DNA of 64,000 nucleotides, from positions 422-64,421 of the IMG/VR virus record IMGVR_UViG_3300010351_000300, one strand, 5' to 3'. Both the position numbers and the translations under genes were made by a program. Below are positions 8,451 to 33,435 of the stretch, in pieces. The first letter of the stretch is position 1. Each line of letters starts with the position of its first letter. The DNA is from a virus. Taxonomy: Duplodnaviria > Caudoviricetes. Under the pieces are notes generated by a model. That model saw nothing but the letters and a program-made list of their open reading frames with translations. It did no database searches and was not told the origin of the DNA.

Positions 8451-10010
8451 ATGACGAAATCCGAAGCCCTTCTCGGCAAGAAAGTCACCCTCATTGGATT
8501 CCGCAGAAAGTATGTTGTTGTCGGCGCACCGAAAGAAGATGTCGTACAACTTGTTGCTCTTGAGGGTGGTCTTCGGGATTCGGACTTGCAGGTTTCGCCG
8601 GATGAGGTAGAAGTTTCCCTCAGTCAGAACAAAGCCTTTGTAGGGTCAGTTGCTCGCCAGTTAAAGAACACCTACGACAGTTTCAAAGCCAGATTCGACC
8701 GCGAAGGCATCCCCTACCATCAGGGTTACATCCCTGTGAAGGTCGGAGAAGCACAGGAAGCACCTACGCCCAAGTATATCCGTGCTGAGGTGGGGGAGGA
8801 AGATGCTCGTCTCTTGAGATACCACCCGGAGTCACAAATCCGGTTGATGATTGACCCCAGTGCTTTTCTTGATCTCGTAGATCCGGGGTTTGTCAAGAAA
8901 ACCTCCCATGCCTTCTCGCAGCGATCTTACGACAAAGTGCTTCAGCGTTTACAGGACGGGGAAGCACTGGATTCTGTGTTTCTAGATGTTGATGTCAAGA
9001 CCGGAGATATCATCGGCCACGAAGGGCGCCATCGTTGTGCTGCGGCCATTGCGTTGGGGATCCCCAAAGTTCCAGCCATCCTCTATCTCCGAGAAGTGGC
9101 TCACCGGTATGTAGGATATGTGCGGGACGCTTCCCTTCACCAGAAAGATCCCAAGGTAGTTGAAATTATCAACAAGCTCCGTGGGTCAGATGTGGAATTC
9201 GTTGGTGAGGAAGACCCGGAACATAAGAGGCACCGTGAGCTATACGGCTACGACGAGAGCGTGGATAGAAACCCGACATCACAGGATTGGGTGGAACGAT
9301 TCCATGCGATCCTCTCTCGGGTGTCAGAGCTTCATCAGACCCAAAAGGACGAAAAATCTCAGCGTTCAGAGATCGAAGGTGTGTTCACTGCGCTGGAGCC
9401 CCTGTTTCTCGAAACCAGCCGTGCTGAAGTAGCACTCAGTAAAGCCGATGAAGAGACACAGGCTAGCAAACAGTGGGTCTCCGTGAATTCCGAACTGACA
9501 AACCATCTCTCGCAAATCGTCCCCGAGGCGGAACAGATTCTGGAAGAGCTGGCACAGTACATGACACGGATACAGCAAAACACCACCACTACGGCCAAAA
9601 CGGTGCAGCAGATGATTCAGCAGTTAGCGGAACACATCAAGCAGCACACGGAACAGTTTACTGCTCGCTATCGTCAATCGCTGGACACCATGCAAACAGG
9701 ATTCCAGCGACTGGGGTTCTATGCGGATGCCGAACAACGCATGGCCCGTGAGAGTGTGGCGATGCCGGAGACCCTTGCCTGTCTACAACGCTGCTCACAG
9801 ATGGAACGCACGAAGATTCGTTCGGAGATTCGAGAGGCAACACGCTTTGTCACCCCCTCCCAACATCGTGTACTCTATGAGCTTACCAGCCAAATTACGA
9901 AAAGCGCCACCCCGCGTCAGATCCGGGAGATTGCTGAGGAAGCAGTCAGCTTGATCGAGGAAAGCGGAGTGTGTGTGGTGAAGAGGGTTGACAACAGGAC
10001 GAAAAAGTAG
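8451..10010 (+). CDS. modular protein with internal ParB/sulfiredoxin-like domain and C-terminal coiled coil
   Basis: LDVDVKTGDIIGHEGRHRCAAAIALGIPKVPA is a ParB/Srx-type GxHR motif. The C-terminal half is helical. Confidence 0.65.
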   Translation: MTKSEALLGKKVTLIGFRRKYVVVGAPKEDVVQLVALEGGLRDSDLQVSPDEVEVSLSQNKAFVGSVARQLKNTYDSFKARFDREGIPYHQGYIPVKVGEAQEAPTPKYIRAEVGEEDARLLRYHPESQIRLMIDPSAFLDLVDPGFVKKTSHAFSQRSYDKVLQRLQDGEALDSVFLDVDVKTGDIIGHEGRHRCAAAIALGIPKVPAILYLREVAHRYVGYVRDASLHQKDPKVVEIINKLRGSDVEFVGEEDPEHKRHRELYGYDESVDRNPTSQDWVERFHAILSRVSELHQTQKDEKSQRSEIEGVFTALEPLFLETSRAEVALSKADEETQASKQWVSVNSELTNHLSQIVPEAEQILEELAQYMTRIQQNTTTTAKTVQQMIQQLAEHIKQHTEQFTARYRQSLDTMQTGFQRLGFYADAEQRMARESVAMPETLACLQRCSQMERTKIRSEIREATRFVTPSQHRVLYELTSQITKSATPRQIREIAEEAVSLIEESGVCVVKRVDNRTKK

Positions 10011-13575: not shown

Positions 13576-13648
13576 CTTGTTCGGGGTGAAATCTATACTC
13601 AAAGAGGGGTGGACGGTTTCATTTCGGATTTAGCATAAGGGGTGTTCA

Positions 13649-16600
13649 ATGGGTAAGCGATTGGTGGCGAGTGCTGGTGTAGATGAGGTGCTTTCTGCTT
13701 TGGTGGAAGCATTCAATTCGTCTTCGAGTAACGACCGAGTAGTGTTTCTTTCCGAAGACGGGCAGTCTACCACTGAGCGCCCTGACCCGTTGGAGTACCC
13801 GAGGTTGTTGTCCGTTGCAGAAGTGGTGATTGGCCGAAAGGCATCGAGGACAAATCACCGATTGGTTCTCGTTCATGCTACAGGGCAGGGTCAGCTTCCG
13901 GCAGGGTGGACTGTGGAGTATAAGCCTATTCCCCGCCTGAAGCCCCTGACGGAGCGCGTGGATGTCACAGGTATGCCAACAACTGCGGATGAGGTTGACG
14001 CACTGCTTGTGACTGAACGCAAGTTGTGGGATGATGCACATGCTTCTGATGAAGCTATTCCCGCAGCTCAGTATGCCCCGGCAGTTGAATATCTTGTTAT
14101 GTTGAAAGATGGTTTGGATCTGGTTGCTCGTATGAAAGAGCGCGATCCACAGGATATTCTTCTCAAGACGTTAGAAGCGGGCAATGCGTTGTGGTGGAAG
14201 CAGTATCAAGCCGCTAGGTTTCAGTCTGTAGGTATTGACGAGACCTTCCGAGTCAAGCCTGAAACACAACAGCGTTTTCTACGGGACTTGAAGGCAAACT
14301 CCGATGCGAATACGCGGGATCTCTATCAGCGTTTGCGTGCAAGACAGGCCAAAGATCCCGAGGGTGCTGCCAGTATCTGGGCAGAAATGGCTGACGAAAT
14401 GCTGGCGAAGCATCCCGATTTAGCATCCATAAAAGTGGCGGAGCGCGTGGATGTCAAGGACATTCCCACGTACTCGGTGATGTCTTACGATGTCGTGGGG
14501 GACACGGAAGAGGAGTTGAAGCTCGTTGCTCGTTCCATCCGGCTCGTCAAGGCATTGACTATCAAGAGCGCCCCATCTCGTAAGGGGAATGTTTTCGTTC
14601 TTCCAGTCGATGCTCATATCCCTACGGGGTCGGCCGATCCCGCGCAGGAGGGTTTCGACCTGATCCAGAACGCGATTCAGAAGGCCGGGGTGGAAGAGAG
14701 TCATTCACGGGTACAGTCTACTTTGACGGAGGACGAATCTACAAAGTTCATCAACTCCGATCTACAATGGTTGGTTGGTCCGGATCAAGATATGACTTGG
14801 GCGCAAGCAAAGAAGTGGGTTCAGAGTTTAGGGGAAGGCTGGCGAATGCCTACCCTTATTGAGCTTAAAGGGTTGTGGGAAGCAAATCTACCGATCAAAG
14901 GTAGGGGTGCCTTTTCGGCGGCGTATGTGTGGTCACAGGATAAAGGTATTGGTTCAGCCAAGCGTTTCAACTTCAGTGCTGGGGAGTATGAGATGACACC
15001 TCTCGATTTCCCTTACGGAACTCGGGCTATGGCTGTTCGTGAAGCAGATACCACACCAGCCAACGAAAGTCAACGGGTACACCCCGTGCAGGAAGGTCAC
15101 CGTCGTCTTCAAGATGCTATCGTTCAAGCCAAGAGACAAGCTGCGGATCGTCAAGCTGTGCGGTATGTGTTCGCTACCGCTTATGGTTATGCTGTATGGG
15201 ATTCTCAACCCCCCTCGGGACAGAGATACTATGCTGTTCAACCTGATGGCACAGTGAGTAAGTCTTTGGTAGCGGGACAGGTCACGGAGGGTGTACCCAG
15301 CAAGAGGACAATTCCCGTCCGCACCTACCTTGGCCGTATCGATTGGAATGGGCAGATGTGGTCTGCAGCGGTTGTGCGTCAAGTCTTAGAGGCTGTGCAG
15401 GGTGAACTTCAGGCTGTCTTTGGGAAGTACACATGGTATCTGGATGGAGATACAGGTGACTACTCCATCATGGCAAAGAGTCTGGATACCAAAGACTTGT
15501 GGGCTGACGGCCACGGGCGTACCCCGAAACAGGCCATTCTCGACTGCAATGCTACGCGGACCATCTTCCAGAAGAACGGGTGGCTTCCCAGTAATGGGAT
15601 GATGACGGATGAGTCTCGTGATCATCCTGTGGTGGAAATCTCTCTTAGAGAAGACCTTGATGTAGCAAATACGATTCTCCAACAGCTTGGTGGGCGGAAG
15701 TTCATAGCGATGACTGGTGCTAAGGATTTAATGGGTGGTCCTGATTTCTTGGCCTTTCGTGTGGGTGCAAACCCAAAGCGGGTCAATAAAGTCCGGATTA
15801 CACTTAATGCTCATGACTACTATGATGTAGAGTTTTTCCATCTGCGCAATATGAAAGCTACTCTACTCTCCCGTGTGGAGGATGTTTCCGTTGACATGCT
15901 TCGTGATGTGTTTACACAAAATACCGGGTTGTATACCTCGTTGGGAACTATGGGTCGGACCCCTGAAACAGAAGGGGTATGTCGTCATAGCGGAACGATT
16001 GCCACGGAAGGAGTATGCCAACCCCTTAGTGAAGACCTAGATGTGGCGAACACGATTCTCCAACAGCTTGGTGGGCGGAAGTTCATAGCGATGACTGGTG
16101 CTAAGGATTTAATGGGTGGTCCTGATTTCTTGGCCTTTCGTGTGGGTGCAAACCCAAAGCGGGTCAATAAAGTCCGGATTACACTTAATGCTCATGACTA
16201 CTATGATGTAGAGTTTTTCCATCTGCGCAATATGAAAGCTACTCTACTCTCCCGTGTGGAGGATGTTTCCGTTGACATGCTTCGTGATGTGTTTACACAA
16301 AATACCGGGTTGTATACCTCGTTGGGAACTATGGGTCGGACCCCTGAAACAGAAGGGGTATGGCATGGCCTACATTACACCCTCCGCTTCCCGCAGGTCG
16401 AGGGAAGATACATCAAGGGTACTAGAATCGAGTCGTGTGAGTTTGAGGTTGTAGTGCAGTGTGGCAGTGAGGCTCAAGCTAGAGAATTCTTCCATACTCT
16501 TCAAGCTAAGTTGCAGGAGGATGAGAGTTTGAGTCAGCGTTGGGGACTTGGGTACGGTTGGATTCGTGGCAATGATGCTGTGTCGGTGTATGGGAAGATG

Positions 16601-17443
16601 GATACTCAGGACGAAGCCGCAGAGTTTGATTTTGAGAGCGGGGACTTGGGCGGTCTCTATACTGCTGCTGAAGAATTGGTCGAGCAGATGTTAGTAGCCG
16701 TGCTTGGTGCGGATTGGGAGAAGAGTTCGGAAGATGACGAAGATTTGGAAGAGTCAGTTTCTCCGACACAGCAGGCCCTTTCCGTAGGGTTGAAGGGTTG
16801 GGTTAAGGACTACATCCTTGCCCGGCGTGCTGGGAACATCGCACTGGCAAGGAGTATCAAGGCCAATCTCGACCGTGAGATTAAGAAGCAGGGGTTGGAT
16901 GCGCATGAAGTGTATTTCGTGTTCGGGGATCCGGACGATCCGAAAAACGATGTAGTCGTGGAAGCGAACCCGCGCCTCGATTTGCGTACTCCCCCTGTGA
17001 GTCGTCCCGATCCTGTAATATCGGCTGTAGAGGTTTGGTACGACCCACACACCAGATCGTGGATCGTGCAGGACAATGACGCAGAGGGCAATCAGATTGG
17101 GGATGCACGGTACTACGGCGATAAACCATCCGCGCTTCGTGACCAGCAGTCTGCTCGTAAGCAGTATGGGTTAGTAAAATCCGTGCAGATGGCGGAGGGG
17201 TCGGCTTTGCCATATGTGATTGAAGATGATGCTAGTCAGAAAATCGCGCACTATGTGGCTGGGGACTTTCACTGGCAGGTTGATGGTGGAGAAGTGATCG
17301 TGTCTCGAAACACTAGTGGGGGCATTATGTCTATTAACCACTATGCATACAAGGATTTTGATACCGCTGCTAATGCAGCATGGAAAATGGCCACCCTACA
17401 GGCACGGACCACTGAAGCAAGTGATTCTTCTGTGCGGGACTAG
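13649..17443 (+). CDS. 1264-aa mosaic multi-module protein (putative head-cargo polyprotein)
   Basis: About 10 unrelated 65-135 aa modules separated by xxE|S/G/D/A linkers. Contains an Lcl/DUF1566-like module and an internal duplication. Confidence 0.8.
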   Translation: MGKRLVASAGVDEVLSALVEAFNSSSSNDRVVFLSEDGQSTTERPDPLEYPRLLSVAEVVIGRKASRTNHRLVLVHATGQGQLPAGWTVEYKPIPRLKPLTERVDVTGMPTTADEVDALLVTERKLWDDAHASDEAIPAAQYAPAVEYLVMLKDGLDLVARMKERDPQDILLKTLEAGNALWWKQYQAARFQSVGIDETFRVKPETQQRFLRDLKANSDANTRDLYQRLRARQAKDPEGAASIWAEMADEMLAKHPDLASIKVAERVDVKDIPTYSVMSYDVVGDTEEELKLVARSIRLVKALTIKSAPSRKGNVFVLPVDAHIPTGSADPAQEGFDLIQNAIQKAGVEESHSRVQSTLTEDESTKFINSDLQWLVGPDQDMTWAQAKKWVQSLGEGWRMPTLIELKGLWEANLPIKGRGAFSAAYVWSQDKGIGSAKRFNFSAGEYEMTPLDFPYGTRAMAVREADTTPANESQRVHPVQEGHRRLQDAIVQAKRQAADRQAVRYVFATAYGYAVWDSQPPSGQRYYAVQPDGTVSKSLVAGQVTEGVPSKRTIPVRTYLGRIDWNGQMWSAAVVRQVLEAVQGELQAVFGKYTWYLDGDTGDYSIMAKSLDTKDLWADGHGRTPKQAILDCNATRTIFQKNGWLPSNGMMTDESRDHPVVEISLREDLDVANTILQQLGGRKFIAMTGAKDLMGGPDFLAFRVGANPKRVNKVRITLNAHDYYDVEFFHLRNMKATLLSRVEDVSVDMLRDVFTQNTGLYTSLGTMGRTPETEGVCRHSGTIATEGVCQPLSEDLDVANTILQQLGGRKFIAMTGAKDLMGGPDFLAFRVGANPKRVNKVRITLNAHDYYDVEFFHLRNMKATLLSRVEDVSVDMLRDVFTQNTGLYTSLGTMGRTPETEGVWHGLHYTLRFPQVEGRYIKGTRIESCEFEVVVQCGSEAQAREFFHTLQAKLQEDESLSQRWGLGYGWIRGNDAVSVYGKMDTQDEAAEFDFESGDLGGLYTAAEELVEQMLVAVLGADWEKSSEDDEDLEESVSPTQQALSVGLKGWVKDYILARRAGNIALARSIKANLDREIKKQGLDAHEVYFVFGDPDDPKNDVVVEANPRLDLRTPPVSRPDPVISAVEVWYDPHTRSWIVQDNDAEGNQIGDARYYGDKPSALRDQQSARKQYGLVKSVQMAEGSALPYVIEDDASQKIAHYVAGDFHWQVDGGEVIVSRNTSGGIMSINHYAYKDFDTAANAAWKMATLQARTTEASDSSVRD
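14732..15043 (+). other. Lcl/DUF1566-like C-type-lectin-fold module within the 1264-aa ORF
   Basis: LQW..GPD..MTWAQAK.W...LG.GWRMPT..EL..L...YVWS...A..FNF..G...RAMAVR. Confidence 0.75.
15671..16362. repeat. two identical 311-bp direct repeats (15671-15981 and 16052-16362), period 381 bp, in frame
   Basis: Base-by-base identity from ACGATTCTCC to GAAGGGGTATG. Encodes the duplicated ILQQLGGRKFIAMTGAK...TGLYTSL module. Confidence 0.97.
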
Positions 17444-17844: not shown

Positions 17845-18423
17845 ATGTCAGATGCTTTGCGCCCGATGGATGTCATCCTCTCGTACAAGAGGATACCTCA
17901 AGCATGGTGGCCTGTCAAAGACGCTTGGTGGTGGCCCCCGACCCGTCCGTTTGAAGTGGTAGCTGATGCGTCGATTCTGAAGTACGGGCGGAAACTCTAC
18001 CCCAATGGGGATATTCGGTATAACCATGTTCGTCTGTATCTTGGAGCGGCTGAGGATATACCTTTGATTTTCGAATTCACCTTCCCGGCGGCTAGGATTG
18101 CCCGTCTGGAGCCGTGGATGATACAGGCTCCGTATGGCAACGTCTTCCGTTACACAGGGCCTTGCCACCGTCTTCCGGTGCCGGGGTTGCTGGCGACTTG
18201 TCTCCCCTACATTGGAACGCTCTACGATCTCGGACAGTTGGTAGACATAGGTCTTGGTCGTCGCATCTTCGATTTCGGCAAGGATAACATGGTGTGCAGT
18301 GTGGGTGTGCGCAAGATCATCGAGACGATAGTAGGAGTGCCGGAGCTGTTCCCGAATGTGGCGCTGGACCGTACCCCGCCATGCTCGTTCGCTAATTCTC
18401 CTCACTTCTTGAGGGTGAATTGA
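17845..18423 (+). CDS. circularly permuted NlpC/P60 (YiiX/YebB-like) papain-fold enzyme
   Basis: His first (YNHVRLYLG), then G.LYD, then the Cys motif NMVCS. Confidence 0.7.
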   Translation: MSDALRPMDVILSYKRIPQAWWPVKDAWWWPPTRPFEVVADASILKYGRKLYPNGDIRYNHVRLYLGAAEDIPLIFEFTFPAARIARLEPWMIQAPYGNVFRYTGPCHRLPVPGLLATCLPYIGTLYDLGQLVDIGLGRRIFDFGKDNMVCSVGVRKIIETIVGVPELFPNVALDRTPPCSFANSPHFLRVN

Positions 18424-19166
18424 TGCTGACTCCTTTTTCTACCGAGACCTCACAAAAGGAGTTGTCCTACCCCGGACTTCTGCGACGTGGGATGAAGGGG
18501 GCGGCAGTGAAACGCCTGCAGGAGTGGGCGTGTTTGTCCTATTCTACGAAGATTGTGATTGATGGGGATTACGGAGCGGCTACTGAATATCTGCTTGGGT
18601 CAGTTGAGTGTCTTGAGGTGAAATGGCGTTGTCTGACGAATGCAATGCGTGTTGCATTGCTCCCTCCGTCACCGCTCCCACAGCAACTTACTTTCTCCAG
18701 TTTGCTGAGACAGTGTGCATGGACGCACCACGGGATGACTCCTACCGAGGTCGGTGGGCAGAATCGCGGGCCGTGGGTGCGTTTGTACATGGATGGTAAG
18801 CAAGGCAGGGACTGGCCGTGGTGCGCAGGCTTCGTTAGTTTCCTCCTACGACAAACTGCCTTCTTTCTCGATGCAGAACTCCCGGTGAATGTGTCCTATA
18901 GTAGCTCTATTCTAGCCGCTGATGCCCGAAAGAAGGGGCGACTTGTGTCGTTCGAGGAGGTACCAGAATCCTCCGCTGCAATCTTCCTCGTGCGTGGGGG
19001 AAAGACAGGGTACCGTCATACTGGGGTTGCGGTCGAGTTGGATCATACTGCGGGTACATTCTCGACTGTCGAGGGGAACTCGAATCTTGCTGGTTCGTCG
19101 GAGGGTAAGGAAGTCTGTTCATTAGTACGTGCGGCACAGGGTAAGGATTTCATCGTTCTCGACTAG
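18420..19166 (+). CDS. endolysin: peptidoglycan-binding domain plus CHAP amidase
   Basis: LLRRGMKGAAVKRLQ (PG_binding_1), EVGGQNRGPWV, PWCAGFVS, HTGVAV, TVEGNS. Confidence 0.85.
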   Translation: MMLTPFSTETSQKELSYPGLLRRGMKGAAVKRLQEWACLSYSTKIVIDGDYGAATEYLLGSVECLEVKWRCLTNAMRVALLPPSPLPQQLTFSSLLRQCAWTHHGMTPTEVGGQNRGPWVRLYMDGKQGRDWPWCAGFVSFLLRQTAFFLDAELPVNVSYSSSILAADARKKGRLVSFEEVPESSAAIFLVRGGKTGYRHTGVAVELDHTAGTFSTVEGNSNLAGSSEGKEVCSLVRAAQGKDFIVLD

Positions 19167-19967: not shown

Positions 19968-22900
19968 ATGGGTTCTTGGCCCGAGGATAATGCCTATTCT
20001 CAGAAATTGATCGGGGATCGCTATCGTCAGCGTGGGACTACGGAAACAGCGGCAGACATTTTTCGTCGTATTGCACATCAGGTGGTTCAGTCTCCGAATG
20101 CTTTATCATATCTTCTTTCTTTAGATGCTTTGGAGGAAGTGTTTTATCAGTGGATGCTCTCGGGAGAGGGTTGCCCAGCGGGTCGAATTCTCGCTAATTG
20201 CGGAGGAATTGGCAGCAATATGAATGGGAACTGTTTTGTACTTCCGGTGCATGACAGTAGGGAAAGTATCTATCGATCGCTAGGAGAGATGTCAGAGATC
20301 GAGGCTTATGGTGGTGGTGTGGGATTCAATTTCTCCGAGCTGAGACCTGCGGGTTGGGAGATCAAGAAGCTCAATGGTGTGTCGTCCGGGCCTGTGGCGT
20401 TCATTGATATCTTCGACAAGTCCGTAGGGACGATTTCACAGGGGGGTAGTCGCCGGGGTGCTGCTATTGGTGTGCTGAATGTAAACCACCCCGACATCCG
20501 CAGCTTCATTCAAGCAAAGAGTGACCCAGAGAATCGGCGCTGGACAAACTTCAATGTCTCAGTCGGGATCACGAATGATTTCATGCAAGCCGTGAAGGAT
20601 GGTACCACTTTTCATTTTCGGTGGGGAGATTGGGTAGATCCTAACCCTCAGTCTGCTCGTGCTTTGTTCCGGGAGATCGCTGAAGCGGCGTGGGGGACGG
20701 GAGAGCCGGGTGTCTTCTTTCTGGACACCGTAAACCAGAAGAACCCACTCTCGCAAGTTGAAGTGCTGCAAGCAGTCAATCCGTGTGTTCCTCTGGATAC
20801 ATGGGTACAGACTACAGATGGGCCGCGTCAGGCTCGTGATTTGATGGGACAGTCCTTTACGGCTGTGGTTCGTGGAGTGCCGTATGATGTCCCAATGCCG
20901 GGCTTTTTTGCTACTGGTACACAAAAGGTTCTGCGTGTCTCCACGAAGCAAGGGTTTGTTCTTTCAGCAACCCCCAACCATTTATGGGCTACAGTGAAGA
21001 AGAACCCTCGGCGTAGTCTGTCTACGGATGGCTTGCAGGATGTGGTTTGGGTTGCAACACAGGACTTGCAATCTGGGGATCATATTGTTGTCAATAGGCA
21101 TCTCAATCTTTCTTGGCCCGGTGCTGGTTCTGAGGAAGAGGGGTATCTGCTGGGAGTGTTTCTTGGGGACGGTGTGTTCTGTGAGGACACCGCCCGGATC
21201 TCAAGTTGGGATACTTCTGCCTCTTCTGTAAAGGAAAGGGTGCTCAGTGGTCTCCAAAAACTTCCTCACCGCTCAGATTGTGGTACGGGAGAGGCATCTC
21301 CGGTCTGGTCCGTTAAGTCAAAGAGCCTGACGGAGTGGATAGCTTCGTTGGGCATTACCCCGACAAACAAGACGCTTACACCAGCAACTGAACAGCTATC
21401 CAGTGCTTGTACTATTGGAATACTGCGTGGTTTGTTTGATGCGGATGGTACGGTTGGGGATAAGTCACCTCAGAAAGGGCTTTCGGTTCGTTTGTCTCAG
21501 AGCAATATGGAAATGCTCCAAACCGTGCAGAGGATGTTGTTGCGTTTGGGTGTGTATAGTACCATTTATGCCACTCGTCGTGCGCAAGGTTTTCATTCTC
21601 TTCCAGATGGTAGGGGTGGGTACAAGGATTATCCGATCAAGGCTCAACACGAGTTGTGTATAAGCAGGGATTCTTTGTTAGTGTTCCAAGAACGTATTGG
21701 GTTTGGCGACAGCCGAAAGTCTGAGCAGCTTGCCAGTGCTCTTCAGCGAATGTCACGCTCAACCTATCGAGGTTGGGATATTGCAACAGTTTCCGAGGTG
21801 GTAGAAGCCGAAGCGATCCCGGTTGGTGATGTTCAAATCCCCGGTATCAACGCCTTTGATGCTAACGGTTTTCTCGTTCATAACTGCGGAGAGCTACCCC
21901 TCAACGCATACGGGATGTGTGCGCTATCCTCGCTCAATCTGTCGGTCTTTGCGGAGCAGGGGCATGTCTCATGGCGTCGGTTGGAGCAGTCGGTACGAAC
22001 TGGTGTTCGGTTCTTGGACTTGTTGATCGACACCTCGTTTTTCCCGCTGCCTGAGATTCGCGATGAAGTGCTGTCCAAGAGGAAGATCGGTCTAGGCGTC
22101 TTCGGGTTGGCGGATCTGCTGTTCCTCAAGGGTTTGCCTTATGGCGACTACCCTAAGACTTTGGCCTTTATCCACAAGCTCTTTGGGTTCATCGAGCAGA
22201 CAGCGTTGAGTGAGAGTGAAGAATTGGCTGAACGGCTTGGGCCTTTCCCGCTCTGGGAGAAGTCGGGTTTGGAGACTCCGCGCCGTAACGGGACACTGCT
22301 GTCTATGGCACCTACTGGGAGCATTTCCTCTCTGTATGGGGCTTCGTGGGGTATAGAGCCTTACTTCTCAGTGAGCATGATGCGTAATGAGCGCATGGGG
22401 GTAGATCAGGTTTCCTTCCGAGTGTTGGAGCAGTGGCGTCAGGAACACCCCGGACAGGCATGGCCGGAGTATCTGAAGCTCGTGCATTCTGAGGATGCTT
22501 CAAGGGTACTGAGTGTCAGGGATCATTTGGCTGTCCTCGGAGCAGTGGCGGAGCATGTGGACAATGCCGTTTCCAAGACAGTCAACCTTCCGCACAGTGC
22601 TTCGGTGGAGGATGTCGAGGCTGCTTTCATCAGTGCGTGGGAAGCCGGAATCAAGGGCTTGACGGTCTTCCGTGATCAGTGTAAGCGAGCAGCAGCAATC
22701 ACGCCTGTTGCAGAGGAGAAGGACATGGAATCCGATTTGTTGGATGACGAAGACGAGGGTATGGAGGATGACGACATGGATGATGAAGACGCTGCTCGGG
22801 ACGCCGAAGTCATTCAATTGGCCGAGTCTATGGTAGATGACATTCTCAGTAAGCCGAAGGATCGGCCTGATAAGGTCACAGCCACAACCTATCACATCAA

Positions 22901-23336
22901 GTACGCGCCGGACAAGCCTGCGCTCTACATCACCATTGGAGATGTAGACGAGGATCCGTTCGAGATATTCATCAATACGGAGGACTCTTTGATGCGTGAG
23001 GGGTTGGACGGCCTCTCTCTGACACTCACAGCATTGTTCCGTAGGGGCATTAGCTGCAAGTTCTTGGTAGAGAAATTCTTGAAGTATGAGTCTGCGCTAG
23101 GTGGTGCATTCTACAAAGGGAAGTACGTTCCGAGTGTGTTGGCGGCTGTTGGTCTCGTGTTGAAGGAACATCTCCAGAGTTTGGGGGCAATGCCCCCAGA
23201 TCATCAGCCAGAGTTGTTGCTCGGTAAGGGTAGTGATGCCCATGCTGATCGTTGCCCCTCCTGTGGGGAATACGCCTATGTTCGACAGGATGGATGTGGC
23301 TTGTGTGCAACGTGTGGGTTCTCCTCCTGCGGGTGA
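19968..23336 (+). CDS. nrdJ: class II (B12-dependent) ribonucleotide reductase with intein
   Basis: PAGRIL, NCFV, GGGVG.NFS.LRP, QGGSRRGA, NP[intein]CGE, MAPTGSIS, VDNAVSKTVN, GIKGLTVFRD, C-terminal TSCPD-like domain and CPSCG..CATCG zinc ribbon. Confidence 0.95.
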   Translation: MGSWPEDNAYSQKLIGDRYRQRGTTETAADIFRRIAHQVVQSPNALSYLLSLDALEEVFYQWMLSGEGCPAGRILANCGGIGSNMNGNCFVLPVHDSRESIYRSLGEMSEIEAYGGGVGFNFSELRPAGWEIKKLNGVSSGPVAFIDIFDKSVGTISQGGSRRGAAIGVLNVNHPDIRSFIQAKSDPENRRWTNFNVSVGITNDFMQAVKDGTTFHFRWGDWVDPNPQSARALFREIAEAAWGTGEPGVFFLDTVNQKNPLSQVEVLQAVNPCVPLDTWVQTTDGPRQARDLMGQSFTAVVRGVPYDVPMPGFFATGTQKVLRVSTKQGFVLSATPNHLWATVKKNPRRSLSTDGLQDVVWVATQDLQSGDHIVVNRHLNLSWPGAGSEEEGYLLGVFLGDGVFCEDTARISSWDTSASSVKERVLSGLQKLPHRSDCGTGEASPVWSVKSKSLTEWIASLGITPTNKTLTPATEQLSSACTIGILRGLFDADGTVGDKSPQKGLSVRLSQSNMEMLQTVQRMLLRLGVYSTIYATRRAQGFHSLPDGRGGYKDYPIKAQHELCISRDSLLVFQERIGFGDSRKSEQLASALQRMSRSTYRGWDIATVSEVVEAEAIPVGDVQIPGINAFDANGFLVHNCGELPLNAYGMCALSSLNLSVFAEQGHVSWRRLEQSVRTGVRFLDLLIDTSFFPLPEIRDEVLSKRKIGLGVFGLADLLFLKGLPYGDYPKTLAFIHKLFGFIEQTALSESEELAERLGPFPLWEKSGLETPRRNGTLLSMAPTGSISSLYGASWGIEPYFSVSMMRNERMGVDQVSFRVLEQWRQEHPGQAWPEYLKLVHSEDASRVLSVRDHLAVLGAVAEHVDNAVSKTVNLPHSASVEDVEAAFISAWEAGIKGLTVFRDQCKRAAAITPVAEEKDMESDLLDDEDEGMEDDDMDDEDAARDAEVIQLAESMVDDILSKPKDRPDKVTATTYHIKYAPDKPALYITIGDVDEDPFEIFINTEDSLMREGLDGLSLTLTALFRRGISCKFLVEKFLKYESALGGAFYKGKYVPSVLAAVGLVLKEHLQSLGAMPPDHQPELLLGKGSDAHADRCPSCGEYAYVRQDGCGLCATCGFSSCG
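20784..21884 (+). mobile_element. 367-aa intein with LAGLIDADG homing endonuclease
   Basis: Starts C-VPLDTWV and ends GFLVHN, followed by extein Cys. LAGLIDADG helices GYLLGVFLGDG and GILRGLFDADG. Confidence 0.95.
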
Positions 23337-23398: not shown

Positions 23399-25285
23399 AT
23401 GCCGGGGTTGTTTGGATATTTGCAGCGTGTATTCGGTAACGGAGCCTCAGATAAACCCAAGCCACTATCTACGCGTCCTGTGGGCCATTCCGGGGGTTTG
23501 ACACCGGAGCAGAAGTTTATCCGTACTGACCCCGAAAGCCGAATCAATCTAGTTGCTAATCATGGGTTGCTTTCTCAGTTGTTCTTCGCTGCAACGGATC
23601 TCGCAGCTTCGCGCCGCATGCGGTATATCGAGTACGATCAGATGGAAGAGAATGTCATTATCGCATCCTTCCTTTCTCTGATTACGGAAGATGCATATCA
23701 GCGTGACCCAGATAGCGAAAAGAGTGTCTGGATCGACCCTGACTTCCAGTACGCCAAAGAATTGGAAGATCTGTTCGAGAAGCTGGATGTCGAGAATCGT
23801 GGGCATGGCTGGATGTATAACTGTGCTAAGTTTGGGGATTTCTTCCTCAAGCCTTCGTTAGCAACCGGGCTTGGTGTGGTGGCCGCACGAGATGACTTGC
23901 ACCCTACGGATGTTTGGCGTATTGATGTACAGGGCCAGTTGCTGGCTTTTGCGTACACGGATCGGTTGTTTGGCTCAGGGAATGCCAGTGCCTTCAACTC
24001 TGTTGGGGGTGTGGCAGGCGATGTGAGGATTGTTGTCCCGGATCAGATGATACACTTCGTGTTCAACTATCGTCCGACATTCGAGCGGTTCTCACTATCC
24101 ATTCCGGCTAACTTCTACGATGAGCTTGAGGACGAGGATGGCGATTTGGTCCAGAGTACCGAAAGCCGGAGTCTTGTCATGGAAGCCCAGCAGCGGTTGA
24201 TCGAACGGAAGCAGAATTTGCGGAAGCGGCTGGTAGAGGCGTTGCAGCAGGCGGCTGAAGTCTCGGGTGAAATGACTATGATGGGGGATCCGGTAGACGA
24301 CCATGTCTCACTGGCTATTCAGGTCTCAGGTCGATATGGTACCTCAGCGTTGTACGAAGTTCGGAAAGACTACAAGATTCTGACGCTTATGGAACAAGCT
24401 CTGGCGTTGGGTAGGTTGGCTCGTTCCGGTGTGGCTAGGATTTTCTCGGTCAATACCGTAGATGCAACCCCCGAAGAGCGTGCTCGGTTGCTGCGTGAAC
24501 TGGAAGACAAGCTCACGAAACGACAGGCATTTGATGCCACTACCCAGCTTTATCAGTCTGAATACTCACCGTTGAACTACTTGGATGACATCTTCCTACC
24601 CACGACTGGTGGGCGTGGGGATGTCACGGTTCAACAGCTTGGTGGGGATTTGAACATCAAGGATGCTGTGGACATCGATTATTTCCTGAGTAAGGTCTTT
24701 TCTGGTCTGCGTGTTCCCAAGGCGTACCTTGGATTTGAGGAGATGTTGCCGGGGTCTCTCGGGGCGGCTACTCCTTTGATTCAGCTCGACGTGCGGTATG
24801 CCCGGACGGTGAAGAAGCTCCAGCGGGCGTTTATGGAAGGGATCAAGGACTTGTGTTCCCTGCACTTGAAGTACAAGCTCGGGGTGAATATACCAGCGAA
24901 AGACATCCCGTTGAATATGTCTACCATTTCTGGTGCCGAAGAAATGGCTCGTATGGATATAGTCAAGAGCAGGATTGAAACCGCACAAGCGATTGCGGAT
25001 TTCGTGACGGCACATGGTGGAGACGGCTCGAAGGCTGCGCGGGAGTTGTTTGACGATATCGTTGCTCGGGCTTTGCCGAGTCTGAACACGGATGGTATCT
25101 TCGATAGCCCCAACCCGAATCCAGAAGCTGCTACAGCAGATGAACTGAATCTTCCTAAGCCCGAGGATCGTACACCCACCGCTTCTTCTACACCTGCGGA
25201 GCCTTCTCCTCCTGAAGTCGAGCCAGAGTTAACAGGGACACTGACCCCGGAGGAGGAGCCGACTGGTGGAGAGGGTGAAGTCTAG
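23399..25285 (+). CDS. portal protein (T4 gp20-like)
   Basis: RYIEYDQME, YNCAKFGDFF, ARIFSVN, DIDYF..KVFSGLRVPKAYLG, QLDVRYARTVKKLQ. Confidence 0.9.
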   Translation: MPGLFGYLQRVFGNGASDKPKPLSTRPVGHSGGLTPEQKFIRTDPESRINLVANHGLLSQLFFAATDLAASRRMRYIEYDQMEENVIIASFLSLITEDAYQRDPDSEKSVWIDPDFQYAKELEDLFEKLDVENRGHGWMYNCAKFGDFFLKPSLATGLGVVAARDDLHPTDVWRIDVQGQLLAFAYTDRLFGSGNASAFNSVGGVAGDVRIVVPDQMIHFVFNYRPTFERFSLSIPANFYDELEDEDGDLVQSTESRSLVMEAQQRLIERKQNLRKRLVEALQQAAEVSGEMTMMGDPVDDHVSLAIQVSGRYGTSALYEVRKDYKILTLMEQALALGRLARSGVARIFSVNTVDATPEERARLLRELEDKLTKRQAFDATTQLYQSEYSPLNYLDDIFLPTTGGRGDVTVQQLGGDLNIKDAVDIDYFLSKVFSGLRVPKAYLGFEEMLPGSLGAATPLIQLDVRYARTVKKLQRAFMEGIKDLCSLHLKYKLGVNIPAKDIPLNMSTISGAEEMARMDIVKSRIETAQAIADFVTAHGGDGSKAARELFDDIVARALPSLNTDGIFDSPNPNPEAATADELNLPKPEDRTPTASSTPAEPSPPEVEPELTGTLTPEEEPTGGEGEV

Positions 25286-28155: not shown

Positions 28156-31100
28156 ATGACTCGTCAGTTTGGAAGTTTGGTACAGGTACTCCGTGAGGAC
28201 GTTGAAGACGAGGTTCTTGACCCTTCTGCGGAGGATTTTGACGGGGCTGTCGAGGCAGAAGTAGACGATTTTGGCGGTGAGGACTCCACCCCGCAGCCGG
28301 TTGACAAGGTGACGGTTCTTACGTCTAGCAGCCTGTGTGACAAGGGTTTCTACATGGCTGTCCCACTCCCGGATGACGATGTTGCCAAGCAGGTGAAGGA
28401 AGAGGGGGCTTGGTACGCGAATGCTCTGGCAGTTGCGCTCAACCAGTTCCTCGTAGATAACGGGTACGCGGATGTGACTACACAGGCATTGGAGAGCGAA
28501 GACGACTCTACACTGCGTGTTTCCGTGCTCTGGGCCGGTGGGCAGGAAAGCGAACCCGATGCGGTACTGGCGTTGATGCAGGAGTTCATCAGTGGGCTGC
28601 ACGATCACCCGGTGCTGTCGATCATCGGGCAGACAGACCCCGAGCCGCAGGTACACGGTGCTGAATATCAGGTGGAAATCGAATTCCCGGAGCCTATTGA
28701 TGATGCTGCTGTGGCTAAGTACATGGATCGTTTGGCGCAAGCTCTTGGGGCGTGGGATGAGAAGAACGGGGTCGAAGACCAGAACTTGGCACTTCGTTAC
28801 GTAAATCACGGTGAGTACACACTGGTTGTTGCAGTTGATTCTCCGATGGAGATTCCGGAAGATGTCTTTGTCGATCAGGTGCCGGAAGACCAGAAGAAGG
28901 ATGAGACGGTTGGCGAAGAAGAGACACAGGAAGCCGAAGATGAAGTAGAGTCTGACACCGAAGAGGATGCTGCTGATCAGGAAGCCGAAGCTGGAGTAGA
29001 CGGTGAAGCCGAAGATGCTGAGAAGGAAGAAGATGAGGACGAAGAGAAGAAAAAGAAGACTGAATCCCGTCATCCCCTGAAGGAGGGCTACCGCGATGTT
29101 CTGGAGCAGATTCTTCGTAGGGTAGCCCATGATGTGGTATATGACGCTGCGTCTACCTATCAGCAAAGAGGTGGTGGCGCAGCCGCAGGAGGGCTTCCAG
29201 CTCGGTATTATCTATACATGAAGCCTGCAACGGCGACGGAATACGGTGATTTGCAGTTCTTCCGTGGTTGGGGAGATGAGCCTGATCCACGGTTAGAGGG
29301 TTGGGATCTTGTGACGGGTGAGAGTCTGATCATCGACTACCATGGATCTCTAGGTGAGGAAGTGGTCAGGAAGTGGTTGGAGGACAAGGCTCAAGTTAGA
29401 AGGCTTCCTCTGATTGCACAGAATGCTGAGAAGGAAGAAGATGAGGACGAAGAGAAGAAAAAGAAGACTGAATCCCGTCAGCCGGTGAAGGAAATGGCTA
29501 CAGGAACAGCCGTGCTTATGGCAGAAATCAGGAAGATGTTTCAGGCGATTCTTGCGAAACTTCCAGATCGCTGCAAGATCGACGCCGAGATTGGTCAGTA
29601 CCGGGGACAAGGTGATCTGTATCTTTCCGGCGTGGGAAACGACAGCGCAGACATAGACTTCAAGTGGACTATTTCGAGTGGTGTGGCAACGCAAAAGGTT
29701 CGTCCCGACTGGGGTGATGAACAGCCGATAGTCTTTTGTTTGGGATTTATTGATTCACCGCAAGTAAAGGCAACTGTGAAGGAAGAGTGGAACATTCCGT
29801 TTGATAAGGATATGCTTGATTACGCCGATCCTATTGCACAGTGGATTATGGCGTTTGCGGGGCTGAAGCCAAACACAGAATCCAAGAAGCGCACCAACGA
29901 GGGTCGGAAACGATTCAATACTCAGACAGGTATAGGTAAGTCGAAGCATGTTCTCAACTTTCATGATGGTGTGAAGACACATAAAGATGGTAGTGACTTC
30001 TATGATATCCGAATATTCTCCAACGCGAAGGATCTTGCTGCGTTTGTAGCTGATCTGAAATCGAAGGGGTATGTTGAAGAGAGCATTGAATCCAAGAAGC
30101 CTGCCTCGAAGGCCCGTCAGCACCATCTTGTTCAGGAGAAGACTATGGCCCTCACCCCTGAGACTGCCAAGGCTGCGGCTTGGGATGCAGGCAATGCCAG
30201 CATGCGCAAGGCTGGGCGTACCTCGTGGAACGAAGAAGATATGATGGCTGCGGATCAGGAAATGGCCCGATTGATGCGTAAGGTTGAGCCTGATAATCCT
30301 ACATGGTGGACTGACGAGGAGAGAAACGCTGGGGTGGCTACTGAGTCCCGTAGTAGGCTTCGTGAGTCGATGTTTGACTACTCACCCGACCCCATCCATT
30401 TCTCCGAAGACATGCCATATCTAGACAATGTGTTGGAGATGTGGAATGGTGCTCCAGAAGAGAACGGGGATTTGGAGTGGTCCGGCCCCTACCGTGATTT
30501 CTTGACGATGAACGATGACTCTACAGACGGTATTCCTCCGGAATCCTGCTACATGAAGCCCGGTGAGGAGCGAGTCGTTGGGGGTGGGGCGTATGCCACA
30601 TTCACCCTCAAACTCTCCAAGAATCAATGGGAAGAGGGAAAGCGGGGGTCTCGGAAGCGCCCTTTTCGCGAGTCTACGGAGCCTGAAGGCTCGAAATACA
30701 TCACTGTCAGCTACGATACAGTCACCCCGGAATCCGCTGAAGAGGGGGATGTTGCTGAAAGTGGCTGGGAGGATGAAGAGGGCGTAGACATGACGCCGGA
30801 TGAGATCGATGTCGAGGACGGGATCTCCGCTGTGGACAAGGCTGTGGACTATCTGCAGAAGAACGGCCCTATGGAGCCGTCGTCTTCGCAGTTCACCCCA
30901 CATACTTGGTACACACACTACGAGGGGCAAGATCCGAGTGATGGTTCGGAAACCAGCTACTCCTACCATCTGAATGGCTTTACTCCAGAGGAAGAGCAGG
31001 AGATTTACAGGCGTATGACGAGCAAGAACGAATCTCGGTTGCGCGATTTCAAGTCTGTGGCAGGGTGTTCGTATGTCGAATCAGGGCAGGCGATACCACG

Positions 31101-33435
31101 ACGCGAGTTTGACCTTGGTGGGGTGGAGCGATTTGGTAAGTATGTCAGTATAGTCAAGGACGGCCCAGCTTATCTTGTAAAGCGTCATCCTGACCATCCG
31201 GCTGGTAGAGCTATTGCTGGGGTATCTTCTCTGACACGGGCTCGTGCAGTTGCAAAGAGGCTGGAGCGGGGGGATACTGTTGGGGATATTGAGAAGGACT
31301 TGAAACAGGGTTTCATATCCGAGGGACAGTGGTCAGGGCAGGCGATACCACGACGCGAGTTTGACCTTGGTGGGGTGGAGCGATTTGGTAAGTATGTCAG
31401 TATAGTCAAGGACGGCCCAGCTTATCTTGTAAAGCGTCATCCTGACCATCCGGCTGGTAGAGCTATTGCTGGGGTATCTTCTCTGACACGGGCTCGTGCA
31501 GTTGCAAAGAGGCTGGAGCGGGGGGATACTGTTGGGGATATTGAGAAGGACTTGAAACAGGGTTTCATATCCGAGGGACAGTGGTCAGGGAAGGTCGATA
31601 CCGACTGGACACCCCCCGAGGGCTTCTTCAATCAGAGTGCAGAGAAGATCGCACGCGGGTTGGAGTCGGCTTCAACTGGATTGCAGCAAGCAATGTCTCG
31701 ACTGAATTTCTACATCAACCGGGCGGGAGAGAACCTGTCTGATGATGATAAGAAGCGGTTGGAGAAGGCGAAGGACGAGCTACATCATCTTTACGACCAG
31801 CGTGAGTCTGTGCAGAAGGAAAGCATCGTCCAAACCGACACTTCCGAAGAGCTGCGAAAGGTGACTCTCGCGTGCGAAGCTTCGGGCTTGAAGTACGCTG
31901 TGACAGGGAAGCAAGTCGTGATCTCTGGAACACACGCACAAGTCGAAGAATCGTTGAAGGCTGCTGGTGTTGATGTTGTGTGTGATGAAGCCAAGAAAGG
32001 GCCTCGTCCGCAGAAGCCGAAGGATCCCAGCCGCCGTCCGAAGGGACGTGGCAAGCCTCGGGAAATTCATGTACCGAAGCCTCGTCCTCGTCCCGAAGTC
32101 GATGAGTCCATTCAAGTGAAGCCGTTTAAGGCGGACTACTTCATCGATTTGCTGTCTACTGATGTGGATGAACTGACCAAAGCATCCTCAATCCTCCGTC
32201 GCAAGGGGTTGAAGGTCGGTCGGCCTCAGCGGGCAGTGGATTCATGGTTCGTGACCGTCTCCGGAGTTGCCGCAACCAGTGGAGCAGAGGCTAGGCAGTA
32301 CATTGCATCCTTGCTGAATCTATCCCGGTTAGCAGTGACAATGAGTGAGTCACATTCTAGTGAACCGGAGTCTATTGCAGCCTCGCTGGATCAGGCTACT
32401 CAGGAAACAATCGAACACGCACGTAGGTGTGTGGCCATTATGAACCAGCTTCCTGAAGGGACAACGATTCACAGCGGACGTAAGACATGGACTAAGACTA
32501 CCGTTGCAGGAGATATCTTCTGGACGGATGGGAAGCGTTGGGTGTCTAACGTAGTTATGGAGGTTGGTGCAAAGATTGCCTCTCAGATCACCGGAATTGA
32601 TATGTTCAATCCACCTCCGGTAGGGACGGTGCTATCTGTTGGGAAACACCAGACCACTGAGCGTGTTGACTCGGAATCTTCGGAGCAGCCTATCCGATAC
32701 GACCCAAATACGAATCGTCATAATGGGCAAAAACTTGTTCGGGGTGACTTGATTCGAGATACTGAGGGTAAGGTCTATATTCTGGACCGTGATCGCGGTT
32801 ATTTCCTGAATCTGGATGTTGCCGTGCAGAATCCAGAAGGAATGTGGCGTCCATCATCTCAAGGCAAGACCTTCAGTGTTGACCCCACAAATAAGGATGA
32901 GTACCACGGTGATCTCTTCCTTATGGGGAAGAATGTCTTCGAGTCCAAGTCCGTGGTTGTTGAGCAAGCACCCCCAGAGGACAGCGAAACAATGACTGTC
33001 AGTATCCCTACAGAGAAACTGGTAGACAGTCTGTTGCCAGTACCTCGTGGTTTTTTCCGTATGGGGACAGGGTTCGAACATGAAGACGGAGAGGGGTCGA
33101 TTGATGGTACCTCTGCATTGGGCCTTCAACTTGAAATGTACCCCGACTGGATTCTTTCCAGTGCTGAAGTGACGCCGGAGAATACAACGCTGACGCTCTA
33201 CAAGCAGGGTGTTCTGGATTACATGCAGGATTCCGGTCAGTGGGCTGCTGATGCTACTCTTGATTTTGCATCCGAGGAACTGAACGATCAGGATGCGATA
33301 GTGGCGTTCTTGCGGAATACATTGCACGAAGAGCTAGTGCAGCGTGTAGACCTGTTCGATTTCTACACACCGTCACCTTCCGATGATATGTCGGAACTTG
33401 ATGATGAAGAGATGAACGATGGGGATGCGGAGTAA
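28156..33435 (+). CDS. 1759-aa mosaic multi-module protein (putative head-cargo polyprotein)
   Basis: Acidic N-terminal region, then about 15 small modules bounded by xxE|S/G linkers. Includes a DUF3175-like module and two internal DNA repeats. Confidence 0.82.
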   Translation: MTRQFGSLVQVLREDVEDEVLDPSAEDFDGAVEAEVDDFGGEDSTPQPVDKVTVLTSSSLCDKGFYMAVPLPDDDVAKQVKEEGAWYANALAVALNQFLVDNGYADVTTQALESEDDSTLRVSVLWAGGQESEPDAVLALMQEFISGLHDHPVLSIIGQTDPEPQVHGAEYQVEIEFPEPIDDAAVAKYMDRLAQALGAWDEKNGVEDQNLALRYVNHGEYTLVVAVDSPMEIPEDVFVDQVPEDQKKDETVGEEETQEAEDEVESDTEEDAADQEAEAGVDGEAEDAEKEEDEDEEKKKKTESRHPLKEGYRDVLEQILRRVAHDVVYDAASTYQQRGGGAAAGGLPARYYLYMKPATATEYGDLQFFRGWGDEPDPRLEGWDLVTGESLIIDYHGSLGEEVVRKWLEDKAQVRRLPLIAQNAEKEEDEDEEKKKKTESRQPVKEMATGTAVLMAEIRKMFQAILAKLPDRCKIDAEIGQYRGQGDLYLSGVGNDSADIDFKWTISSGVATQKVRPDWGDEQPIVFCLGFIDSPQVKATVKEEWNIPFDKDMLDYADPIAQWIMAFAGLKPNTESKKRTNEGRKRFNTQTGIGKSKHVLNFHDGVKTHKDGSDFYDIRIFSNAKDLAAFVADLKSKGYVEESIESKKPASKARQHHLVQEKTMALTPETAKAAAWDAGNASMRKAGRTSWNEEDMMAADQEMARLMRKVEPDNPTWWTDEERNAGVATESRSRLRESMFDYSPDPIHFSEDMPYLDNVLEMWNGAPEENGDLEWSGPYRDFLTMNDDSTDGIPPESCYMKPGEERVVGGGAYATFTLKLSKNQWEEGKRGSRKRPFRESTEPEGSKYITVSYDTVTPESAEEGDVAESGWEDEEGVDMTPDEIDVEDGISAVDKAVDYLQKNGPMEPSSSQFTPHTWYTHYEGQDPSDGSETSYSYHLNGFTPEEEQEIYRRMTSKNESRLRDFKSVAGCSYVESGQAIPRREFDLGGVERFGKYVSIVKDGPAYLVKRHPDHPAGRAIAGVSSLTRARAVAKRLERGDTVGDIEKDLKQGFISEGQWSGQAIPRREFDLGGVERFGKYVSIVKDGPAYLVKRHPDHPAGRAIAGVSSLTRARAVAKRLERGDTVGDIEKDLKQGFISEGQWSGKVDTDWTPPEGFFNQSAEKIARGLESASTGLQQAMSRLNFYINRAGENLSDDDKKRLEKAKDELHHLYDQRESVQKESIVQTDTSEELRKVTLACEASGLKYAVTGKQVVISGTHAQVEESLKAAGVDVVCDEAKKGPRPQKPKDPSRRPKGRGKPREIHVPKPRPRPEVDESIQVKPFKADYFIDLLSTDVDELTKASSILRRKGLKVGRPQRAVDSWFVTVSGVAATSGAEARQYIASLLNLSRLAVTMSESHSSEPESIAASLDQATQETIEHARRCVAIMNQLPEGTTIHSGRKTWTKTTVAGDIFWTDGKRWVSNVVMEVGAKIASQITGIDMFNPPPVGTVLSVGKHQTTERVDSESSEQPIRYDPNTNRHNGQKLVRGDLIRDTEGKVYILDRDRGYFLNLDVAVQNPEGMWRPSSQGKTFSVDPTNKDEYHGDLFLMGKNVFESKSVVVEQAPPEDSETMTVSIPTEKLVDSLLPVPRGFFRMGTGFEHEDGEGSIDGTSALGLQLEMYPDWILSSAEVTPENTTLTLYKQGVLDYMQDSGQWAADATLDFASEELNDQDAIVAFLRNTLHEELVQRVDLFDFYTPSPSDDMSELDDEEMNDGDAE
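29015..29480. repeat. 58-bp direct repeats (29015-29072 and 29423-29480) flanking one protein module
   Basis: Identical ATGCTGAGAAGGAAGAAGATGAGGACGAAGAGAAGAAAAAGAAGACTGAATCCCGTCA, encoding the linker AEKEEDEDEEKKKKTESR. Period 408 bp, in frame. Confidence 0.97.
31081..31590. repeat. perfect 252-bp tandem duplication with TCAGGG at all three junctions
   Basis: 31081-31332 equals 31333-31584. TCAGGG at 31081, 31333 and 31585. The 84-codon module is duplicated in frame. Confidence 0.97.
31576..31806 (+). other. DUF3175-like module within the 1759-aa ORF
   Basis: WS..V...W.PPEG.F...A..IA..L...AMSRLNFYINRAGENL....RLEKAKDEL. Confidence 0.75.

Follow-up and report, generated by a model that had tools for sequence, protein, structure and literature searches.

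We analyzed a 64,000-nucleotide (nt) stretch (the window) of the IMG/VR record IMGVR_UViG_3300010351_000300, a 64.4-kb contig from an uncultured, giant, T4-like phage, focusing on a stop-free open reading frame (ORF) of 1264 amino acids (aa) at positions 13649 to 17443. The window is nearly all of the contig, for which a completeness estimate of 29% implies a genome of ~220 kb, and its + strand carries all of its long ORFs. Homologs of gp20, gp21, and gp23 are all encoded (Pfam and PHROG head matches), constituting a T4-type head module, and the closest cultured capsid proteins have only 33 to 37% identity to the one found here. An original prediction, made from the letters alone, had described the 1264-aa ORF as a mosaic polyprotein whose modules are joined by glutamate-ending linkers resembling those of a second ORF of 1759 aa. 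Our analysis shows that the ORF is a mosaic polyprotein of ~12 unrelated modules, four of which have dozens of free-standing homologs (Table 1).

Module architecture of the 1264-aa protein

Table 1. Modules, linkers, and associated head genes in the window (↓, predicted cut; P numbers, related proteins)
Feature	Positions	Strand	Remarks
TATACT, candidate late-promoter -10 element	13594-13599	+	50 nt upstream of ORF ATG
Leader, 20 residues, ends L-V-E↓A, T4 capsid-targeting-like pattern	13649-13708	+	Kept in P0004
Module A-N, residues 21-102, ends LTE↓R	13709-13954	+	Always N-terminal in P0004, P0007, P0064, P0065
Module A-mid, residues 103-265, between repeated (T/A)ERVDV	13955-14443	+	Free-standing homolog P0092, 110 aa
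Module A-C, residues 266-350, ends VEE↓S	14444-14698	+	Homologs in P0062-P0065, P0067
Linker SHSRVQSTLTE↓DE	14699-14737	+	B-C insertion breakpoint versus P0004, exactly after LTE
Module B, residues 364-466, weakly Lcl_C/DUF1566-like	14738-15046	+	PF07603 E=2.4e-5, below gathering score; not in P0004, P0007
Linker with VRE↓A, ANE↓S, VQE↓G	15047-15094	+	
Module C, residues 483-547, ends VTE↓G	15095-15289	+	In P0007, P0064 (other contexts); not in P0004
Module D, residues 548-655, ends TDE↓S	15290-15613	+	~25 free-standing homologs, 93-118 aa, end to end
Linker SRDHPVVE↓ISLRE↓D	15614-15652	+	
Module E copy 1, residues 669-765, phrog_9437	15653-15943	+	PHROG E=1.8e-30, module alone
Linker between E copies: ETE↓G, ATE↓G, LSE↓D	15944-16033	+	
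Module E copy 2, residues 796-892	16034-16324	+	Direct repeat 300 nt, 98% identity
Module F, residues 903-1035, ends LEE↓S	16355-16753	+	In P0004, P0062, P0063
Module G, residues 1036-1105, ends VVE↓A	16754-16963	+	~50 free-standing homologs, 60-110 aa; also inside other mosaics
Module H, residues 1106-1183, ends MAE↓G	16964-17197	+	~35 free-standing homologs, 45-100 aa
Module I, residues 1184-1257, then TTE↓A and 7-residue tail	17198-17443	+	P0062 homolog before, not after, F; zinc-ribbon-like replacement in P0004
gp20-like portal	23399-25285	+	PF07230 E=1e-36
Sister polyprotein, 1759 aa, between portal and protease genes	28156-33435	+	
gp21-family (Peptidase S77) prohead protease with coiled-coil scaffold-like tail	35187-36539	+	PF03420 E=2.1e-10; phrog_207 E=2e-46
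gp23-like major capsid protein	36554-37996	+	PF07068 E=5.7e-56

Translation bore out the predicted frame and every linker string quoted for it, in order from SALVE↓A via VEE↓SHSRVQSTLTE↓D to TTE↓A. Residues 17 to 21 of the protein, at the end of the leader, read A-L-V-E↓A; an [LI]-x-E motif within the first 25 residues is weakly specific, occurring in 14 of 48 window ORFs, among them the 1759-aa ORF, the protease, the capsid protein, and three more ORFs of the head region. What had been taken for a single first module (residues 21 to 350) proved to be three units, split at LTE↓R and VAE↓R. The first of these, A-N, has no free-standing homolog among 133 hits and may be the targeting or anchor module. 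The second, A-mid, has no counterpart in P0007 and is bracketed by a 34-nt direct repeat (79%) at 13947 and 14436, while the third, A-C, sits elsewhere in P0062-P0065 and P0067, with x-x-E↓R before each copy. Module E has been duplicated in tandem together with its linker (15644 to 16324; spacing, 381 nt), and two stretches of the protein match the 98-position phrog_9437 profile; for one copy on its own the match is full length (positions 3 to 98). P0003 (1137 aa; another assembly) has a single copy and is otherwise identical, and either copy number is polymorphic or the repeat was collapsed in one assembly.

Searches for homologs combined a full HMMER scan with the ortholog P0004 and a word-indexed search with the 1264-aa ORF. 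Modules D (residues 551 to 645), E (669 to 765 and 796 to 892), G (1031 to 1100), and H (1109 to 1175) each recovered dozens of free-standing proteins of 56 to 120 aa that match end to end. For module E there are more than 50 such proteins of ~100 aa, with the initiating methionine at the module start, and in the Vibrio phage KVP40 its homolog lies within a run of small hypothetical genes. The linker glutamates of the polyprotein stand 1 to 6 residues ahead of the free-standing methionine position (VTE↓GVPS-K, VVE↓ISL-RE↓D, and VVE↓ANPRLD-L). A homolog of module H (45% identity, E=1.6e-13) also forms the C terminus of a 504-aa gene in the relative L004 (6089 to 6283), the counterpart of the window ORF at 8451 to 10010, indicating that modules also attach to genes outside the two polyprotein loci.

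Folded alone with AlphaFold on an alignment of 37 sequences, module E gave a compact alpha/beta domain (predicted local distance difference test [pLDDT] score, 82; predicted template modeling [pTM] score, 0.71) followed by a disordered tail past residue 97 that holds the ETE↓G site. None of the solved structures is a convincing relative of this fold (best Foldseek E=0.036; best VIA Z=6.2, under the noise level stated for that tool; no sequence match in the PDB); in BFVD it matched only uncharacterized phage proteins, and in the ESM Atlas only viral hypothetical clusters (score, 0.80). With Pfam, neither the whole protein nor any module scanned singly gave more than the sub-threshold Lcl_C match of module B.

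Module turnover at two polyprotein loci

The 1264-aa ORF is intact in at least three independent assemblies, and the same locus with its flanking genes was recovered from independent samples. Its orthologs differ in content. P0004 (832 aa), whose flanking genes are mostly 91 to 98% identical to those of the window, has no B, C, or E module, and its end is formed by a different module that is zinc-ribbon-like; compared with it, the window carries the B-C block as an insertion precisely between LTE↓ and VTE↓. In P0065 (1079 aa; L004, flanking genes ~50% identical), nothing is retained but the N-terminal module, A-C, and the last G module, and the rest differs. P0007 and P0062-P0067 show other combinations and orders, such as I-F-G-(A-C) in P0062 versus F-G-H-I here. 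In alignable linkers the glutamate before the cut (P1) is kept while its neighbors change (VEE↓S to VEE↓K, LTE↓D to LTE↓E, TDE↓S to TDE↓A, and VVE↓A to VTE↓A). The original prediction had expected variable module content with conserved linkers among orthologs, and this is the pattern found in P0003, P0004, P0007, and P0065, with breakpoints at linkers; a fixed domain architecture is excluded by the syntenic orthologs with differing modules. The shared cargo modules are 66 to 69% identical and thus more diverged than most flanking genes. Scans of IMG/VR with the polyprotein and with the capsid protein gave no matches.

These comparisons also bear on whether the ORF is an assembly or annotation artifact, or a decaying and functionless fusion of accessory genes. 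The contig is metagenomic and the tandem E duplication is not seen in another assembly, but independent samples and diverged phages alike have the long open frame, the differing modules are always in frame, and the frame is still open although the modules have diverged (66 to 87% identity); we regard this explanation as extremely unlikely.

The 1759-aa ORF contains a 70-nt repeat (96%), and its ortholog in L009 (P0191), a relative whose protease is 86% identical to that of the window, carries several extra modules, each flanked by linker repeats: two copies of TE↓SRLHE↓S that form an exact 32-nt repeat, and E↓S..RLRE↓S. Within the window genome the modules of the two ORFs share no similarity, as had been stated (best BLASTP E=0.76). 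A module of P0191 nevertheless has 61% identity (E=8e-33) to one of P0065, and a "GGGA" module of the 1759-aa ORF recurs in P0062-P0066, indicating that the two loci exchange modules over evolutionary time even though they have none in common in this genome. The gene that follows the sister polyprotein in L009 (5795 to 8812; P0192, 1005 aa) encodes a SprT-like zincin domain and then a SWIM-like domain split by an intein with an HNH endonuclease; its counterpart in the window (33419 to 34000) is a 193-aa SWIM-like part only, with no peptidase and no intein.

Glutamate linkers and the head-maturation protease

The linker grammar of the 1264-aa ORF is real but soft, and it is much stronger in the 1759-aa ORF, where E-S occurs 26 times versus 12.3 expected (p<0.001). 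Across the 1264-aa ORF, E[GAS] is enriched (29 versus 18 expected, p=0.002) and D[GAS] is not (18 versus 23), and there are 3 ES[RKQH] sites (0.9 expected, p~0.06). Linkers were delimited independently, by where homology blocks end, which assigns 11% of residues to them; BLAST high-scoring segment pairs run across linkers, making coverage gaps unusable for this purpose. Linkers so defined hold 17 glutamates versus 8.5 expected (p=0.004) and 10 aspartates versus 10.7, with 9 E[GAS] sites versus 3.1 expected (p=0.0025) and 1 D[GAS] site versus 1.9, and an E-(G/A/S/D/I) site is found in every one of them. It is thus glutamate in particular, not acidity in general, that marks the linkers. Together with the disordered tail of module E, this places the candidate sites in exposed, unstructured stretches that separate folded units. 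The resemblance of linkers between the two ORFs is likewise genuine (ESQRVHPVQE and ESRDHPVVE versus ESRHPLKE and ESRQPVKE of the 1759-aa ORF), but the H-P-V element that had been read as part of a shared code probably travels with particular modules and is not universal. Codons for E, S, and R/K of the E-S-R/K motif vary freely among sites, which indicates selection on the peptide, not on the DNA, and leads us to reject the idea that the motif stems from a recombination signal in the DNA; recent insertions do carry DNA-identical linker repeats.

Proteases of the gp21 family cut after glutamate within a very short motif, which reads L/I-x-E for T4 and S/A-x-E for phiKZ, and the SPN3US protease prefers serine at P1' (PMC9026906, PMC10052503). 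The protease of the window is fused to a coiled-coil, scaffolding-like tail of 250 residues with six E-S-(R/K/Q) sites, five of which are kept in L009. T4 has the protease gp21 and the scaffold gp22 as two separate genes, and its prohead-core genes sit between the portal and protease genes, the position that the 1759-aa ORF occupies here. In the protease-scaffold protein, E-S (11 versus 4.3 expected) and ES[RKQH] (6 versus 0.9) are both enriched (p<0.001), mostly in the tail. The N terminus of the capsid protein, IIEE↓SRRQRKE↓A, is a complete "E↓S-basic-E↓" unit and is identical in L009. A logo of 34 nonredundant ES[RKQH] sites from the mosaic proteins of this clade shows a preference for threonine at P2 and arginine or lysine at P2', with a second glutamate six residues past the serine in 12 of the 34. 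The portal also has two E-S-R sites (DPE↓SRI at residue 46 and STE↓SRS at residue 255); to our knowledge, removal of a portal propeptide is known in SPN3US and not in T4.

A second, independent, low-GC lineage of T4-like phages encodes mosaics of its own (P0005 at L007 5146 to 7284, P0034, P0038, P0051, and P0053), with reshuffled modules and very regular E↓S-V-N-E↓ linkers. Several of them have DUF3008 at the start and the phrog_9437 module at the end, and one that ends in module E is encoded between the S77 protease and Gp23 capsid genes. The protease of this lineage has MNE↓SVNK directly after its catalytic domain.

The principal competing view is that the protein stays uncut, as a multidomain "polyvalent" protein whose modules act tethered in the cytoplasm or virion, and that the linkers are acidic or polar spacers made alike by cassette copying. 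Recent insertions are indeed bracketed by linker repeats (the exact 32-nt repeat in L009, the 70-nt repeat of the 1759-aa ORF, and the 34-nt repeat of the 1264-aa ORF), so that likeness can come from copying; the E-S enrichment in the 1264-aa ORF is weak; and some polyvalent proteins, such as N4 vRNAP and ArdC, are delivered uncut (PMC5512222). Against this view stand the enrichment of glutamate and not aspartate, a P1 glutamate that is kept while neighbors and codons change, the same motif in the scaffold tail and the capsid propeptide region, which are classic protease substrates, and a second lineage in which another regular glutamate-ending linker also follows the catalytic domain of the protease. 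We consider the uncut protein unlikely, though still worth serious weight.

We lean toward the view that the 1264-aa protein is organized as "beads-on-a-string": a leader, a conserved N-terminal module, and ~11 independently folding modules of 65 to 160 residues that would be cut apart by the head protease and become capsid cargo. The gene would be transcribed with the head genes, and the N-terminal part would take the protein into the assembling prohead. There, the T4 gp21-type head-maturation protease would cut after glutamate at the x-x-E↓(S/G/A) sites of the linkers, and the freed small proteins would be kept in the capsid and accompany the DNA into the host, as T4 internal proteins do. 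Processing by the head protease seems to us somewhat probable, and cleavage, packaging, and delivery are plausible in light of the known P1-glutamate specificity of the gp21 family.

Expression with the head genes would be in keeping with the TATACT element. With its flanks, this motif occurs 21 times versus 7.6 expected (0 of 100 shuffles), 16 of them on the + strand, and stands 44 to 57 nt upstream of the start codons of the 1264-aa ORF, the portal gene, and the protease-scaffold gene, suggesting co-expression of the three. It may represent a middle or late promoter class of this phage. Its occurrences span 10781 to 61039 (e.g., 13594, 23352, 35134, 42197, 49445, 53467, and 61036), are intergenic, and have no obvious -35 box; the motif is also found before the tail-sheath and other structural genes and is rare in the replication-gene region at 1 to 10 kb. 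This phage does not use the T4 late promoter TATAAATA.

Several observations weigh against cleavage and packaging. Enrichment of the E-S dipeptide is not significant in the 1264-aa ORF alone (8 occurrences where 4.9 are expected, p=0.11), and a small residue after x-x-E makes for a loose pattern: of the 29 E[GAS] sites, 20 fall inside modules. P3 of the linker sites is T, N, A, V, L, or E and not the steady L/I of T4, and the junction between module H and the last module of P0004 has no glutamate site. The free-standing homologs of the modules have no leader, indicating that their function needs no packaging. Nor is the gene part of the core head cluster, as it is found 6 kb upstream of the portal gene and beside HNH endonuclease and lysis-like genes. 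A full-length AlphaFold model on a four-sequence alignment (pLDDT, 38; pTM, 0.24) was too poor for domain borders, and nucleotide and protein searches of cultured phages found single modules only and never the polyprotein, leaving no virion proteome to borrow. Against this background, the original proposal of two arrays with one processing code and a general cargo architecture holds in part: it gains from the variable modules, the common module pool in relatives, and the E-S-(R/K/Q) sites of the protease-scaffold protein and the capsid N terminus, and it is weakened by the E-S count of the 1264-aa ORF itself.

If the protein is cut, another peptidase could be responsible: the weakly papain-like (Peptidase_C92) product of the 192-aa downstream ORF, a SprT-like zincin, or a host protease. 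The downstream ORF (17845 to 18423) has a weak match to PF05708 (E=0.005) and shows synteny with the polyprotein gene in both L002 and L004; the SprT-like domain of L009 (PF10263 E=2.5e-8) lies directly after the sister polyprotein; and zincin processing of polyvalent proteins was predicted by Iyer et al. (PMC5512222). The C92 match, however, is below the curated cutoff, has no solved-structure match, and adjoins a CHAP-like lysis gene, and neither the C92 nor the SprT-like family is known for P1-glutamate specificity, whereas the gp21 family is. We consider such an enzyme improbable. A SprT-like peptidase was rejected as the conserved processing enzyme, as it is not in the window and no HExxH protein is encoded near either polyprotein.

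The motif shared with the scaffold tail raises a further alternative, namely, that the protein is a filler of the prohead core or scaffold, packaged and then degraded like T4 gp22, gp67, and gp68, with fragments that leave the capsid and have no later role; T4 core proteins are in fact cut to small peptides that leave the head (PMC9958956). We find this very improbable. The modules are folded domains conserved as separate genes in many unrelated phages, some without this head type, the fast turnover of the module set is unlike that of scaffolds, and fragments of 7 to 18 kDa are large for exit through the shell.

Relation to known systems and neighboring genes

The closest parallel to the proposed capsid cargo is found in the T4 internal proteins IPI, IPII, and IPIII and Alt, whose capsid-targeting sequence is removed by the prohead protease gp21 (PMC9026906, PMC9958956). 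The head is of the same kind (gp20, gp21, and gp23), the putative leader has the weakly specific ending L-x-E↓A, cuts after glutamate are predicted, and the predicted products are the size of IPI-IPIII and would travel with the DNA. The T4 genes, however, each give a single product that loses a 10-residue leader, whereas here one leader would serve ~12 unrelated products, in a set that varies among close relatives. The sites differ as well, with L/I at P3 in T4 and a preference here for serine at P1' and a basic residue at P2'. The ejection and inner-body proteins of phiKZ, 201phi2-1, and SPN3US are similarly processed by a gp21-family protease (gp175/gp245) that cuts after glutamate at a three-residue motif; they have multisite propeptides and make up abundant cargo that enters the host (PMC9026906, PMC10052503, PMC7411985). 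In those phages the N-terminal propeptide is removed and degraded to leave one mature product per gene, and a chain of many products is not reported.

Polyvalent proteins (Iyer, Burroughs, Anand, de Souza, and Aravind 2017; PMC5512222) string 2 to 15 unrelated domains into one polypeptide of a mobile element, with the idea of delivery with the DNA and of processing, and the association of the sister ORF with head genes is a shared trait. Unlike them, the proteins described here have small, apparently nonenzymatic modules, with no zincin MPTase, ArdC-N, DarB-type enzymes, or LPD families detected with Pfam, and processing by a prohead protease in trans at regular linkers is not proposed in PMC5512222. 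RNA-virus polyproteins and nematode polyprotein allergens also yield many mature products from one ORF with short protease sites between them, but here the protease comes from a separate gene at another place in the genome, its products would be accessory cargo rather than replication machinery, and the setting is a tailed double-stranded DNA phage. The architecture thus combines the stringing of polyvalent proteins with the processing of T4 internal proteins, of which the mosaic is real and the mechanism is plausible. Our literature searches found no description of a cargo polyprotein jointed by prohead-protease sites in tailed phages.

If the proposed cleavage and delivery are correct, a tailed double-stranded DNA phage would be using a polyprotein strategy in which one gene and one targeting signal deliver ~12 premade small proteins at DNA entry. 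This would explain how the injected arsenal of large T4-like phages could change quickly, by the addition, duplication, and swapping of cassettes at linkers, and it would make orphan families (phrog_9437 and the families of D, G, and H) candidate early host-takeover or counterdefense proteins. It would also allow capsid cargo to be predicted from metagenomes by a simple sequence rule, and it suggests a natural way to load T4-type capsids with several foreign proteins. It is possible, though we would stop short of calling it probable, that phages with T4-type heads have a general, expandable polyprotein system in which one targeting module loads interchangeable small effectors, the protease frees them at lineage-specific glutamate-ending linkers (T-E↓S-R/K here and E↓S-V-N-E↓ in the low-GC lineage), and cassettes of module plus linker move by linker recombination. 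The capsid would then be a programmable delivery vehicle with a fast-evolving arsenal, and the linker grammar would coevolve with the protease.

Directly 3' of the polyprotein gene are two ORFs (17845 to 19166) whose synteny is kept in L002 and L004; they have sub-threshold matches to families of cysteine peptidases or amidases (Peptidase_C92, E=0.005; CHAP, E=0.0016; PHROG endolysin, E=1e-10), and they are probably lysis genes. Farther downstream, an intein that carries a homing endonuclease of the LAGLIDADG type (PF14528 E=6e-21) splits the large subunit of ribonucleotide reductase (19968 to 23336), and in the more distant relatives L004 and L005 a different, class II-type ribonucleotide reductase of 658 aa occupies this position.

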